Shown here: in pieces, positions 1 through 6,328 of the stretch
How positions within the stretch are numbered: position 1 is the stretch's first letter
Layout: each line of letters opens with the position of its first letter
Source of the DNA: a virus
Taxonomy: Duplodnaviria; Heunggongvirae; Uroviricota; Caudoviricetes
Virus record (IMG/VR): IMGVR_UViG_2698536651_000002
Coordinates: 1-6,328 of that record
Strand: one strand, 5' to 3'
Length of the DNA stretch: 6,328 bases
The notes under the pieces: generated by a model
Told to the model about the DNA's origin: nothing
Database searches by the model: none
The model's input: the letters and a program-made list of their open reading frames with translations, nothing else
Made by a program: the position numbers and the translations under genes

Positions 1-1059
1 CTGACAGCAGATGAAAAAAGCGTGCTGGCGCATAAGGATGAACTGATTCAGGCGCTGACGCTGCTGGATGCAAAACAGCAGGAGCTGCAGAAGCAGACGG
101 CGCTGAATGACCTTAAGAAAAAATCTATTCAGCTTGCCAGCCAGCTGGCGGAAGAGGAACGGACTCTGCGTCAGCAACATGACCTGGATATCGCCACGAC
201 AGGGATGGGGGATAAACAGCGTCAGCGATACCAGGCGCAGTTCAGTCTGCAACAAAAATACCAGCAGCAACTGGAACAGCTGGAGCGTGACAGTAAGCAG
301 AAAGGAACATACGGCACAGATGAATACCGGAATGCTGAGCAGATGCTGACAGACAGTCTTAACCGGCAACTGAATGAAAACAGACGCTACTGGCAGGAAC
401 AGGAACTGATGCAGGCAGACTGGAAAAACGGTGCCATGCGGGCGTTTCAGAATTTTACAGAGAGTGCGGATAACGCGGCAGGTACCGCTGAGCAGATGTT
501 TACAGCGGCATTTAACAGTGCAGGTAATGCACTGGCGACGTTCTGTACCACCGGAAAACTGAACTTCAAATCTTTTACCGCCTCGCTCCTTTCTGATCTG
601 GCAAAAATCATGTCGCAGATGGCCATGATGCAGGCAGTTAAGGGGATTGGTTCGGCGTTTGGCTGGGGGAGTGCAGCAACTGCCAGTGTGACGCCCAATG
701 CTGATGGTGGTGTTTATCAGTCTGCTGATTTGAGTCGCTACAGTGGCACGGTGGTTAACCGTCCTACGTTTTTTGCTTTTGCAAAAGGCGCGGGGGTGAT
801 GGGAGAAGCAGGCCCTGAAGCCATTCTGCCATTGCGTCGTGGTGCTGATGGCAAGCTGGGTGTTGTGGCGGATATTGGTGGTGAAGGTATGGTGATGTTT
901 GCCCCGCAGTACAACATCGAGATCAATAACGATGGTACGAACGGGCAGATAGGTCCGGCTGCCCTGAAGGTGGTTTATGACCTCGGGAAAAAAGCAGCAG
1001 CGGACTTTATGCAACAGCAGTCCCGTGATGGTGGTCAGTTAAGCGGAGCATATCGGTAA
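1..1059 (+). CDS. H: Tail tape measure protein, C-terminal part (5'-partial; reading frame is open from base 1, stop TAA at 1057..1059)
   Basis: Frame-1 ORF open from the window edge (track shows it from the first in-frame ATG at 22). The translation has a Gln/Glu/Lys-rich coiled-coil-like segment (LQKQTALNDLKKK...QQKYQQQLEQLERDSKQK), then a hydrophobic and Gly-rich tail ending ...GQLSGAYR. It sits directly upstream of M-L-K-I-J, as in lambda. Recognised from memory as the gpH C-terminus; not verified by search. Confidence 0.88.
   Translation: MTADEKSVLAHKDELIQALTLLDAKQQELQKQTALNDLKKKSIQLASQLAEEERTLRQQHDLDIATTGMGDKQRQRYQAQFSLQQKYQQQLEQLERDSKQKGTYGTDEYRNAEQMLTDSLNRQLNENRRYWQEQELMQADWKNGAMRAFQNFTESADNAAGTAEQMFTAAFNSAGNALATFCTTGKLNFKSFTASLLSDLAKIMSQMAMMQAVKGIGSAFGWGSAATASVTPNADGGVYQSADLSRYSGTVVNRPTFFAFAKGAGVMGEAGPEAILPLRRGADGKLGVVADIGGEGMVMFAPQYNIEINNDGTNGQIGPAALKVVYDLGKKAAADFMQQQSRDGGQLSGAYR
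1045..1048 (+). promoter_or_regulatory. Shine-Dalgarno (GGAG) for M, embedded in the 3' end of H
   Basis: GGAG 10 nt upstream of ATG 1059, which overlaps the H stop codon. Confidence 0.45.
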
Positions 1060-1388
1060 TGGAAACTTTTCACTGGAAAATTCGCCCTGATATGGCTGTG
1101 GCATCGGAACCGAAGGTGTTGACGGTAAAGCTGGGGGATGGCTATGAGCAGCGGCGACCGGCAGGGCTGAATAATGTATTGCCCGTTTACAGTGTGACTA
1201 TCCGGATACGTAAAGGAGAACATCAGTCGCTGGAGGATTTTCTGGTGCGACATGGCGGTGTCAGAGCGTTTCAGTGGACACCACCTTATGGCTGGAAACC
1301 TGTCAGGGTGGTTTGTCGTAAATGGTCGGCAAGCGTTGGTGCGTTATGGGTAACTGTAACGGCAGATTTTGAGCAGGTGGTAAACTGA
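1059..1388 (+). CDS. M: Minor tail protein M (tail tip assembly), 109 aa
   Basis: ORF of 109 aa (METFHWKIRPDMAVASEPKVLTVKLGDGYEQRRPAGLNNVLPVYSV...), the same length as lambda gpM and recognisably the same sequence. ATG overlaps the H stop (TAATG); GGAG at 1045..1048. Confidence 0.92.
   Translation: METFHWKIRPDMAVASEPKVLTVKLGDGYEQRRPAGLNNVLPVYSVTIRIRKGEHQSLEDFLVRHGGVRAFQWTPPYGWKPVRVVCRKWSASVGALWVTVTADFEQVVN
1375..1380 (+). promoter_or_regulatory. Shine-Dalgarno (AGGTGG) for L
   Basis: AGGTGG 7 nt upstream of ATG 1388. Confidence 0.55.
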
Positions 1389-2086
1389 TGCAGGATATAC
1401 AGCAGGAAACACAGAATGAGTGTACAAAATCGGAGCAATCCGCGCAGGTCGAGCTCTGGGAAATCGATCTGACAGAGGTCGGTGGAGAACGTTATTTTTT
1501 CTGTAATGAGCAGAACGAAAAAGGTGAGCCGGTCACCTGGCAGGGGCGACAGTATCAGGCGTATCCCATTCAGGGGAGCGGTTTTGAACTGAACGGCAAG
1601 GGCAGTGCTGCCCGTCCGACACTGACGGTCTCTAACCTGTACGGTACGGTCACCGGAATGGCGGAAGACCTGCAGAGTCTGGTTGGCGGAACGGTGGTCC
1701 GGCGTAAGGTTTACGCCCGTTTTCTGGATGCGGTGAACTTCGCAAACGGAAACAGCGAAGCCGATCCGGAGCAGGAGATTATCAGCCGCTGGCGCATCGA
1801 GCAGTGTAGCAATTTAACAGCGGTAAGTGCCTCCTTTGTACTGTCCACGCCGACGGAAACGGATGGCGCTGTTTTTCCGGGACGTATCATGCTGGCCAAC
1901 ACCTGCACCTGGACCTATCGCGGTGATGAGTGCGGTTATCACGGTCCGGCGGTCGCGGATGAATATGACCAGCCGACGTCCGATATCACGAAGGATAAAT
2001 GCAGCAAATGCCTGAGCGGTTGTAAGTTCCGCAATAACGTCGGCAACTTTGGCGGCTTCCTTTCCATTAACAAACTTTCGCAGTAA
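1388..2086 (+). CDS. L: Minor tail protein L (tail tip assembly; lambda gpL is reported to bind an iron-sulfur cluster), 232 aa
   Basis: ORF of 232 aa (MQDIQQETQNECTKSEQSAQVELWEIDLTEVGGERYFFCNE...), the same length as lambda gpL. C-terminal Cys cluster (NTCTW, DECGYHG, KDKCSKCLSGCKF). ATG overlaps the M stop (TGATG); AGGTGG Shine-Dalgarno at 1375..1380. Confidence 0.92.
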   Translation: MQDIQQETQNECTKSEQSAQVELWEIDLTEVGGERYFFCNEQNEKGEPVTWQGRQYQAYPIQGSGFELNGKGSAARPTLTVSNLYGTVTGMAEDLQSLVGGTVVRRKVYARFLDAVNFANGNSEADPEQEIISRWRIEQCSNLTAVSASFVLSTPTETDGAVFPGRIMLANTCTWTYRGDECGYHGPAVADEYDQPTSDITKDKCSKCLSGCKFRNNVGNFGGFLSINKLSQ

Positions 2087-2091
2087 ATCCC

Positions 2092-2835
2092 ATGACACAG
2101 ACAGAATCAGCGATTCTGGCGCACGCCCGGCGATGTGCGCCAGCGGAGTCGTGCGGCTTCGTGGTAAGCACGCCGGAGGGGGAAAGATATTTCCCCTGCG
2201 TGAATATCTCCGGTGAGCCGGAGGCGTATTTCCGTATGTCGCCGGAAGACTGGCTGCAGGCAGAAATGCAGGGTGAGATTGTGGCGCTGGTCCACAGCCA
2301 CCCCGGTGGTCTGCCCTGGCTGAGTGAGGCTGACAGGCGGCTGCAGGTGCAGAGCGATTTGCCTTGGTGGCTGGTCTGCCGGGGTGAGATTTATAAATTC
2401 CGCTGTGTGCCGCATCTCACCGGGCGGCGCTTTGAGCACGGGGTGACGGACTGTTACACGCTGTTCCGGGATGCTTATCATCTGGCGGGGATTGAGATGC
2501 CGGATTTTCATCGCGAGGATGACTGGTGGCGTAACGGTCAGAATCTCTATCTGGATAATCTGGAGGCCACGGGGCTGTATCAGGTGCCGTTGTCATCAGC
2601 ACAACCGGGCGATGTGCTGTTGTGCTGTTTTGGTTCATCGGTGCCGAATCATGCCGCCATTTACTGTGGTGACGGCGAGCTGCTGCACCATATTCCTGAA
2701 CAACTGAGCAAACGAGAGAGGTATACCGACAAATGGCAGCGACGCACACACTCCCTCTGGCGTCACCGGGCATGGCACGCATCTGCCTTTACGGGGATTT
2801 ACAACGATTTGGTCGCCGCATCGATCTGCGTGTGA
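2092..2835 (+). CDS. K: Tail assembly protein K; predicted JAMM/MPN metallopeptidase domain (N-terminal) plus NlpC/P60-type papain-like domain (C-terminal). Alternative internal start at ATG 2236 would give the 199-aa form.
   Basis: ORF of 247 aa. The JAMM signature H-x-H-x7-S-x2-D is visible as HSHPGGLPWLSEAD, with a candidate upstream Glu in PAESCGFVV. The C-terminal part has Cys/His residues consistent with NlpC/P60 (DCYTLF ... HAAIY ... HH). No Shine-Dalgarno before ATG 2092 (5 nt after the L stop, so probably translationally coupled); GGAGG at 2220..2224 precedes the internal ATG 2236. Confidence 0.85.
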   Translation: MTQTESAILAHARRCAPAESCGFVVSTPEGERYFPCVNISGEPEAYFRMSPEDWLQAEMQGEIVALVHSHPGGLPWLSEADRRLQVQSDLPWWLVCRGEIYKFRCVPHLTGRRFEHGVTDCYTLFRDAYHLAGIEMPDFHREDDWWRNGQNLYLDNLEATGLYQVPLSSAQPGDVLLCCFGSSVPNHAAIYCGDGELLHHIPEQLSKRERYTDKWQRRTHSLWRHRAWHASAFTGIYNDLVAASICV

Positions 2836-3380
2836 AAACGGGAGCCGAAGCCATCCGGGCGCTGGCTATGCAGTTTCCGGCGTTTCGTCAGAAACTGAGC
2901 GACGGCTGGTATCAGGTGCGCATTGCCGGGCGTGATGCAGGCGAAAACGAATTATCAGCTCGTCTTAATGAGCCGCTGGCAAATGGTGCCGTGATCCACA
3001 TCGTGCCGCGTCTGGCGGGAGCTAAAAGTGGCGGTGTGTTTCAGGTGGTGCTGGGGGCGGCGCTGATTGCTGTGGCATGGTGGAACCCTGTGGGCTGGCT
3101 GGGTGCCGCGGCTGTATCGGGCATGTATGCGGCAGGGGCCAGTATGATCCTGGGTGGTGTGGCCCAGATGCTGGCACCGAAAGCCCGGACGCCCACAGCG
3201 ACCAGCACGGATAACGGTAAGCAGAACACCTTTTTTTCCTCGCTGGATAATATGATCGCCCAGGGGAATCCGTTACCGGTACTGTATGGTGAGATGCGTG
3301 TGGGGTCTCGTGTGGTTTCTCAGGAGATCAGCACGGCAGATGAAGGGGACGGTGGTCAGGTTGTGGTGATTGGCCGCTGA
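2733..3380 (+). CDS. I: Tail assembly protein I; N-terminal ubiquitin-like (beta-grasp) domain ending in Gly-Gly, followed by a Gly/Ala-rich hydrophobic segment and a conserved C-terminal region
   Basis: ORF of 215 aa (MAATHTLPLASPGMARICLYGDLQRFGRRIDLRVKTG...HIVPRLAGAKSGG...LPVLYGEMRVGSRVVSQEISTADEGDGGQVVVIGR), recognisably lambda gpI-like at both ends. It starts inside K in a different frame (overlap 2733..2835). An alternative in-frame start is ATG 2772 (MARICLYG...). Confidence 0.85.
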   Translation: MAATHTLPLASPGMARICLYGDLQRFGRRIDLRVKTGAEAIRALAMQFPAFRQKLSDGWYQVRIAGRDAGENELSARLNEPLANGAVIHIVPRLAGAKSGGVFQVVLGAALIAVAWWNPVGWLGAAAVSGMYAAGASMILGGVAQMLAPKARTPTATSTDNGKQNTFFSSLDNMIAQGNPLPVLYGEMRVGSRVVSQEISTADEGDGGQVVVIGR

Positions 3381-3398
3381 TGCAAAATGTTTTATGTG

Positions 3399-3424
3399 AA
3401 ACCGCCTCCGGGCGGTTTTGTCGT
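3399..3424 (+). terminator. Intrinsic-terminator-like hairpin between I and J: 8-bp perfect stem (AAACCGCC / GGCGGTTT), 4-nt loop (TCCG), then a T-rich tract (TTTTGTCGTTT)
   Basis: Seen directly: 3399..3406 aaaccgcc, 3407..3410 tccg, 3411..3418 ggcggttt, followed by tttt g tcg ttt. It lies in the 60-nt I-J intergenic gap, upstream of the J Shine-Dalgarno. Confidence 0.4.
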
Positions 3425-3428
3425 TTAT

Positions 3429-3432
3429 GGAG
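3429..3432 (+). promoter_or_regulatory. Shine-Dalgarno (GGAG) for J
   Basis: GGAG 8 nt upstream of ATG 3441. Confidence 0.55.
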
Positions 3433-3437
3433 CATGA

Positions 3438-6328
<2,891 letters not shown>

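Follow-up and report, generated by a model that had tools for sequence, protein, structure and literature searches.

Protein K of phage lambda (gpK, or TAPK; UniProt P03729, NP_040598) was included in 2003 in a list of proteins bearing the JAMM motif, E-x(n)-H-S/T-H-x7-S-x-x-D, whose Glu acts as a general base (PMC300881). In 2006, TAPK was described as a JAB plus NlpC/P60 protein predicted to process the ubiquitin-like (Ubl) domain of TAPI, and NlpC/P60-only versions were noted in some prophages (Iyer et al., PMC1779556). Cleavage of the Ubl domain of gpI by gpK has been described in a meeting report (PMC12908700). gpK is absent from virions (PMC10721106). A review of 2020, working from the annotated sequence of 199 residues, recognized the C-terminal peptidase domain only. 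The present analysis concerns the start of the orthologous K gene in a 6328-nucleotide (nt) stretch of DNA (the window, positions 1 to 6328 of virus record IMGVR_UViG_2698536651_000002), which covers the tail-tip region of a lambda-like phage.

Two in-frame ATG codons are candidates for this start. The K frame opens only at 2071, and the first ATG (2092) follows the TAA stop of gene L (2084..2086) after the 5-nt spacer ATCCC. The second ATG (2236) is codon 49 of the same frame and is preceded by a GGAGG motif resembling a Shine–Dalgarno (SD) sequence. An earlier reading made from the letters of the window alone (the sequence-only reading) had proposed that the true protein is the long form, translated by coupling to L. 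Its description of ATG 2092 as open, SD-less and 5 nt past the L stop, its coordinates, and its quoted 48-residue extension are all exact; the spacer between GGAGG and ATG 2236, which it left out, is 11 nt. Our analysis leads to the same start: K is very probably translated from ATG 2092 as a 247-residue, 28-kDa two-domain peptidase, mainly via the start coupled to L, and ATG 2236 would not be the gene start. All the computational tests that had been suggested (conservation, substitution pattern and structure) favour the long form. ATG 2092 is the sole ATG, GTG or TTG upstream of Glu19, the Glu of the JAMM motif, and therefore any protein containing this residue must begin there. No alternative in-frame start exists between 2092 and Glu19.

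The domain encoded by the disputed codons

Residues 1 to ~108 of the long form would constitute a complete JAMM/MPN+ (Prok-JAB) metalloprotease domain, and residues 111–224 a NlpC/P60 cysteine peptidase with C121, H187 and H199. The Pfam profile Prok-JAB (PF14464, cutoff 25 bits) scores 52 bits with the long form, where residues 3–98 match profile positions 3–103 of 114. The 199-residue form lacks the Glu, as had been pointed out, and scores only 23 bits, below the cutoff, over profile positions 63–103. The NlpC/P60 profile (PF00877, cutoff 23) is matched with 49 bits along its full length (1–105 of 105) and is intact in both forms. The full JAMM motif, E19 ... H68-S69-H70-PGGLPWL-S78-EA-D81, is present in the long form alone. 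The sequence-only reading had likened an N-terminal E-x-CG-x-V element to the Glu-bearing strand of JAMM proteins, and this likeness holds: E19 is near-invariant, and PDB entry 2kks aligns by sequence from residue 7, with its PNEACG opposite PAESCG of K.

The structure predicted by AlphaFold2 with a 99-sequence alignment reaches a predicted local distance difference test score (pLDDT) of 97.2 and a predicted template-modelling (TM) score of 0.91. Residues 1–48 are fully ordered in this model (pLDDT 97–98), forming a helix (3–15) and two strands (21–27 and 30–36), and residues 1 to ~108 are predicted to adopt the MPN fold. A protein starting at Met49 would lack Glu19 and the first three secondary-structure elements, so that the complete fold is predicted to need residues 1–48, as had been expected. 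A Foldseek search against the PDB places the N-terminal domain with PfJAMM1 (5ld9/5lda, including a complex with the Ubl protein SAMP2) over 107–109 columns, about the length of the whole domain, with a root-mean-square deviation of 2.5–2.6 Å and a TM score by target of 0.66–0.69. Rpn11, Csn5 and AMSH are also matched by this domain, and MepS/Spr and LytE by the C-terminal half.

K shares with the JAMM/MPN+ proteases (AfJAMM, PfJAMM1, Rpn11, Csn5) the full motif E-x48-H-S-H-x7-S-x2-D, almost at the residue numbers of AfJAMM (E22, H67, H69, S77, D80), and its predicted fold matches that of the Ubl-cleaving enzyme PfJAMM1. Unlike these proteases, K carries an NlpC/P60 domain at its C-terminus, comes from a gene of a phage tail operon, and has as its predicted substrate a Ubl domain fused in cis to tail protein I, not an isopeptide conjugate. 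With the C40 peptidases of the NlpC/P60 family (Escherichia coli MepS/Spr, Bacillus subtilis LytE) it has in common the full-profile Pfam match, the Cys-His-His residues and the structural matches; unlike them, a signal peptide or a cell-wall-binding module is not evident in K.

Conservation was counted in 103 distant full-length homologues, taken from 2801 relatives that an exhaustive HMMER search found over 1.84 billion representatives. Within the disputed segment, E19 and N38 are each conserved in 100 of the 103, G22 in 101, F47 in 97, C21 in 94, P17 in 93, and H11 and A12 in 84 each. The zinc-binding part of the motif gives similar counts (H68 101, H70 100, D81 100, S78 94), and the lists of invariant and near-invariant residues agree with them. 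In the cysteine peptidase, D120 is invariant, and conservation reaches 90% or more at C121, H187, H199 and H200. Residue 49 is Met in 12 of the distant homologues, Ile in 66 and Leu in 14, and the 87 close protein clusters have Met in 51, Ile in 34, and Leu and Val in one each; Met49 thus appears to be an ordinary, replaceable hydrophobic residue. Full-length relatives at 35–50% identity have 230–260 residues and are collinear with K, query residue ~4–10 aligning to their own residue ~4–15. This collinearity was discounted as proof of the start, N-termini being gene-caller output, and the conservation of residues was used instead.

The substitutions are also of the coding type. A comparison of 81 distinct K sequences of 744 nt gives, for codons 2–48, 13/8/29 variable sites at positions 1/2/3 of the codon, with a third-position bias similar to that of codons 49–110 (20/7/36). 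Pairwise ratios of nonsynonymous to synonymous substitution rates (dN/dS) in codons 2–48 lie between 0.06 and 0.50, which points to purifying selection; the values come from 11 complete pairwise comparisons and the first two regions of a truncated locus (L053), with the lambda reference left out. The sequence-only reading had let the long form depend on conservation of 2092..2235 at the protein level, and the segment is indeed conserved as protein down to 35% identity. In the last 103 nt of K (2733..2835), which gene I overlaps from its ATG at 2733 in another frame, the variable sites are 9/10/15, a weaker third-position bias that is expected from dual coding.

A missing G in the lambda reference sequence

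In the lambda reference NC_001416, K is annotated at 14276..14875 with 199 residues, as the sequence-only reading had stated, and begins at the codon equivalent to Met49, whereas the window and all re-sequenced lambdas have an uninterrupted open reading frame (ORF) of 247 codons. The distance between the two ATG codons is 143 nt in NC_001416, against 144 nt in every other lambda sequence examined. The reference is without one G after 14266 (14266/14267, equal to window position 2226), in GGAGGC-TAT, which splits the K ORF; it reads CCGGAGGC-TATTTCC where the others read CCGGAGGCGTATTTCC. Translated from 14133, it gives MTQTES...GEPEA and then goes out of frame, and the K frame is closed by a TGA at 14255..14257. 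Because the missing G closes the frame, ATG 14276 is the sole possible start in the reference, and the annotation of 199 residues follows from it.

The G is present in no fewer than 16 independent lambda sequences. It is the only difference from the reference across 2302 nt for nine independent lambda-identical contigs from unrelated genome assemblies, and it is also found in a lambda imm21 hybrid, in DE3, in LC730321 (48,503 bp), in KT232076 and in OM418625. Among the 2.9 million contigs of IMG/VR, the version without the G occurs in none and the version with it in at least 120. The 199-residue K of lambda therefore appears to be an artefact of a missing G in J02459/NC_001416, the sequence of 1982. 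What looks like a tradition of the short form is the consequence of a 1-nt deletion and no judgement on start sites, a point that the sequence-only reading missed. In G/C runs such as GGAGGCG, bands may be compressed in old sequencing gels. Nine differences from the 1982 sequence have been reported to be common to laboratory strains, although they were not itemised (Feiss et al. 2022, PMC9119081), and a search of the literature on lambda coordinate 14266 returned nothing relevant.

As a separate observation, lambda-identical contigs, many of them at ~1x coverage, occur in assemblies under labels such as Neobacillus, Pseudoxanthomonas, Shewanella, Bradyrhizobium, Paenibacillus, Desulfosporosinus and Chromatium. 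They are almost certainly laboratory lambda DNA contamination and not prophages.

The short annotation has been carried over to records in which the ORF is intact, such as DE3 and the lambda hybrids of 2022, the latter with an annotated ribosome-binding site (RBS). Comparison of OL657228, PV340565, NC_049954, KT232076, NC_001416, EU078592 and OM418625 reveals four annotated K lengths (744, 675, 636 and 600 nt) for near-identical genes, and the 744-nt form is annotated in phage 21 and PhiR46_1. The GTG starts chosen in 2G7b (675 nt) and in KT232076 (636 nt) were rejected: both are situated downstream of the Glu19 codon and would likewise leave the JAMM domain truncated. Automated gene calls for close homologues are mostly of 247 residues, in clusters of up to 12,883 members; clusters of the 199-residue form have up to 4,936.

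Initiation at the two ATG codons

Complementarity to the 3' end of 16S rRNA (anti-SD) located 5–10 nt upstream, which defines a canonical SD-led start, is lacking at ATG 2092, where the pairing energy in the 22 nt upstream is 0 kcal/mol. ATG 2236 has such complementarity (−9.5 kcal/mol), yet with a 10–11-nt spacer and in structured RNA. The spacer of an SD is usually optimal at ~5–9 nt, and that of GGAGG–ATG 2236, at 11 nt, is longer. The minimum free energy (MFE) of 60 nt around ATG 2092 is −7.2 kcal/mol, within the least structured 3% of the window and in the range of the starts of M (−8.0), L (−5.6) and I (−7.3), and the mean probability of being unpaired is 0.74. Around ATG 2236, the MFE is −22.8 kcal/mol, a degree of structure that exceeds that of 93% of positions, with an unpaired probability of 0.28.

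The short distance from L stop to K ATG is itself conserved; in every relative examined the two either adjoin or overlap. In 106 related loci with a 744-nt K coding sequence, the gap is 4–5 nt in all but one, which has 10 nt, and gaps of 10–11 nt are rare among close relatives; the single-protein scans that provide related loci return mostly close relatives. At ~50% identity, among 11 loci of other genera (such as Rahnella, Hafnia, Erwinia, Pantoea and Enterobacter), a K ATG shares 1 nt with the L stop in 10. Within the window, the H–M junction (TAATG, 1057..1061) and the M–L junction (TGATG, 1386..1390) are 1-nt stop/start overlaps, and together with the 5-nt L–K gap they appear to tie these tail genes closely to one another in a coupled series. 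Coupling across an adjoining stop and start is well known from other gene pairs, for example trpB–trpA with TGATG, and the termination-reinitiation process was reportedly described by Adhin and van Duin in 1990. Like pairs of this type, K has a start no more than 5 nt from the upstream stop, no SD and an unstructured leader; the classic 1-nt overlap is present in the distant relatives, while in the lambda clade stop and start are separated by 4–5 nt.

The model proposed is that most ribosomes starting at ATG 2092 would come directly from termination at the L stop, 5 nt before it, so that the coupling of K to L would continue that of the overlapping H–M and M–L junctions. The unstructured A-rich leader may help initiation, and an SD-less coupled start would lead to a low output of K, suiting a non-structural, catalytic assembly factor. 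Of the coupling put forward in the sequence-only reading, the conserved proximity of L stop and K ATG stands and supports termination-reinitiation. The mechanism itself is a proposal, since SD-independent entry at an unstructured leader would look the same.

Several points weigh against a start at ATG 2092 alone. It is without any SD, whereas ATG 2236 has a strong one, and the retention of ATG 2236 in 76 of the 81 distinct close sequences makes some internal initiation plausible. The dN/dS of codons 2–48 is somewhat above that of the rest of the JAB domain (typically 0.24–0.50 vs 0.08–0.19), and the N-termini of database homologues, coming from gene callers, are not independent evidence of start use. 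The cleavage of gpI was reported in a meeting summary, not a paper, and neither mass-spectrometry data nor an N-terminal sequence of gpK was found in the literature. It could be argued that both starts are used, the long form being the active JAMM plus NlpC/P60 enzyme and GGAGG-driven initiation at ATG 2236 adding a 199-residue, NlpC/P60-only protein as a by-product or isoform. Lambda does have nested in-frame starts (S107/S105, C/Nu3), the short form would keep an intact NlpC/P60 domain, and among the 39 internal in-frame ATG codons in the genes of the window, ATG 2236 alone has an SD of −8 kcal/mol or stronger. GGAGG, moreover, is kept in 79 of the 81 sequences. Against this stand the long spacer and the strong local structure, and also the frequency of the motif: the 6.3 kb of this strand contain 12 copies of GGAGG, and because ~0.7 SD–ATG coincidences are expected by chance (our estimate), the pairing of GGAGG with ATG 2236 is by itself not significant. 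Five distinct close sequences retain GGAGG although their codon 49 is CTG, ATC or ATA, and since the motif persists where the ATG is lost, it is at least partly a by-product of the Pro-Glu codons. Codon 49 encodes Ile, Leu or Val in 36 of the 87 close clusters and is non-Met in 91 of the 103 distant homologues, so that no conserved function depends on Met49. The short protein would also begin inside the MPN fold, just before helix 51–60, exposing a half-domain. Use of both starts is thus considered unlikely, and it is more doubtful still that the GGAGG-N11-ATG retained in the lambda clade drives a functional NlpC/P60-only isoform with its own role in tail-tip assembly. If it did, K would be a nested two-product gene like S107/S105 or C/Nu3, and the 199-residue K would be real beside the 247-residue enzyme.

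That the short form is the sole real K, the upstream 144 nt being untranslated or translated without function, is barely credible. The better SD speaks for it, as do the annotations in NC_001416, in the DE3 record and, with an RBS, in the 2022 lambda hybrids; however, this annotation was forced by a 1-nt gap present in the reference record alone. The upstream segment, whose 48 residues include ESCGFVVSTPEGER, is conserved as protein with a near-invariant catalytic Glu, shows coding-type substitutions and forms an integral part of the predicted domain, modelled with high confidence. Conservation, fold and RNA structure accordingly led to the rejection of GGAGG with ATG 2236 as the principal start. 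It is also very improbable that the missing G was real in the strain that Sanger sequenced, which would have had a split K with a 76-residue N-fragment and a 199-residue protein, and in which the JAMM domain would be dispensable. The NlpC/P60-only TAPK versions of some prophages (Iyer et al., PMC1779556) are compatible with such a strain. Nevertheless, the G is the sole difference over 2302 nt in the nine lambda-identical contigs, it is present in DE3, LC730321, KT232076 and lambda hybrids from old laboratory stocks, and a G-less sequence is absent from IMG/VR. The GGAGGCG run may be prone to compression, and several differences from the 1982 sequence are common to many laboratory strains (Feiss et al., PMC9119081).

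The tail-tip locus, gene I and the meaning of the correction

Features of the K locus in the window (nt positions; strand as given)
Feature	Position	Strand	Remarks
Sequence under study	6328 nt		Tail-tip region of lambda-like phage: 3' part of H, M, L, K, I, start of J
Gene M	1059..1388	+	Between H and L
Gene L	1388..2086	+	Tail tip protein L, 232 residues; Pfam Phage_tail_L, E 1e-99; TAA stop at 2084..2086
L–K intergenic spacer	2087..2091	+	ATCCC, without SD
Gene K, long form	2092..2835	+	Proposed true coding sequence; 247 residues, 28.3 kDa; JAB/MPN+ and NlpC/P60 domains
Proposed K start ATG	2092..2094	+	Unstructured A-rich leader
Disputed 48 N-terminal codons	2092..2235	+	Predicted helix 3–15 and strands 21–27 and 30–36 of MPN fold
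Glu19 codon GAG	2146..2148	+	General-base Glu of JAMM motif; 100/103 distant homologues; PDB 2kks alignment; role per PMC300881
Internal SD-like GGAGG	2220..2224	+	Made by codons Pro43-Glu44-Ala45 (CCG GAG GCG)
Internal ATG (Met49)	2236..2238	+	Traditional lambda K start; in frame with 2092
Zinc-binding part of JAMM motif	2293..2334	+	H68-S69-H70-x7-S78-x2-D81; sequence reads HSHPGGLPWLSEAD
NlpC/P60 domain	2422..2763	+	Papain-like, C40; residues 111–224; PF00877
Cys121 codon	2452..2454	+	
His187 codon	2650..2652	+	
His199 codon	2686..2688	+	
Gene I	2733..3380	+	Ubl tail assembly protein, 215 residues; Pfam Lambda_tail_I, residues 14–97
Gene J	ORF from 3441	+	

The window is not lambda itself: over 1900–2900 its identity is 96% to lambda DNA and reaches 97% with other lambdoid phages; its K protein is 98% identical to that of the G-containing lambda sequences over all 247 residues. 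The gene order H-M-L-K-I-J, the 5-nt L–K spacer and the K/I overlap are the same as in lambda. The Pfam matches follow in the order L, K, I with the J ORF downstream, which fits the lambdoid TAPK layout, in which a JAB plus NlpC/P60 protein is encoded between L and the Ubl-bearing I, upstream of J. On the minus strand, a 510-residue open frame rich in Arg, Pro and Ala lies antisense to J (4533..6065); chance is the most likely reason for such a frame in coding DNA rich in GC.

Protein I is the probable substrate of K. Homology and the reported work suggest that the JAMM domain of K would cut the Ubl N-terminal domain off protein I during tail-tip assembly. At I residues ~90–105 (window 3000..3050), the Ubl domain ends in ...IVPRLAGAKSGG. 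This C-terminus is of the Gly-Gly type, a hydrophobic segment rich in Gly and Ala comes next, and the region is the likely site of cleavage by K. Gene I also has a start-annotation inconsistency of its own. Some public records start it at a GTG overlapping the K stop (GTGTGA, 2832), which would cut into the Ubl domain: in the long form of I, residue 14 is already the first of the Pfam match.

The result corrects the annotation of a known protein from a known family and brings no new biology or concept, the JAB plus NlpC/P60 architecture of K and its link to I having been predicted already in 2003–2006. The new element is the explanation proposed for the 199-residue annotation, a G missing after 14266 in NC_001416. 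Lambda is a reference phage, and the short entry (NP_040598, UniProt P03729) is still copied into new records and analyses. Cloning, mutating, modelling or read-mapping of K from the reference would yield a protein without the catalytic Glu and the first three secondary-structure elements, or a spurious frameshift. Although not novel in kind, the correction is therefore useful to those who work with lambda.

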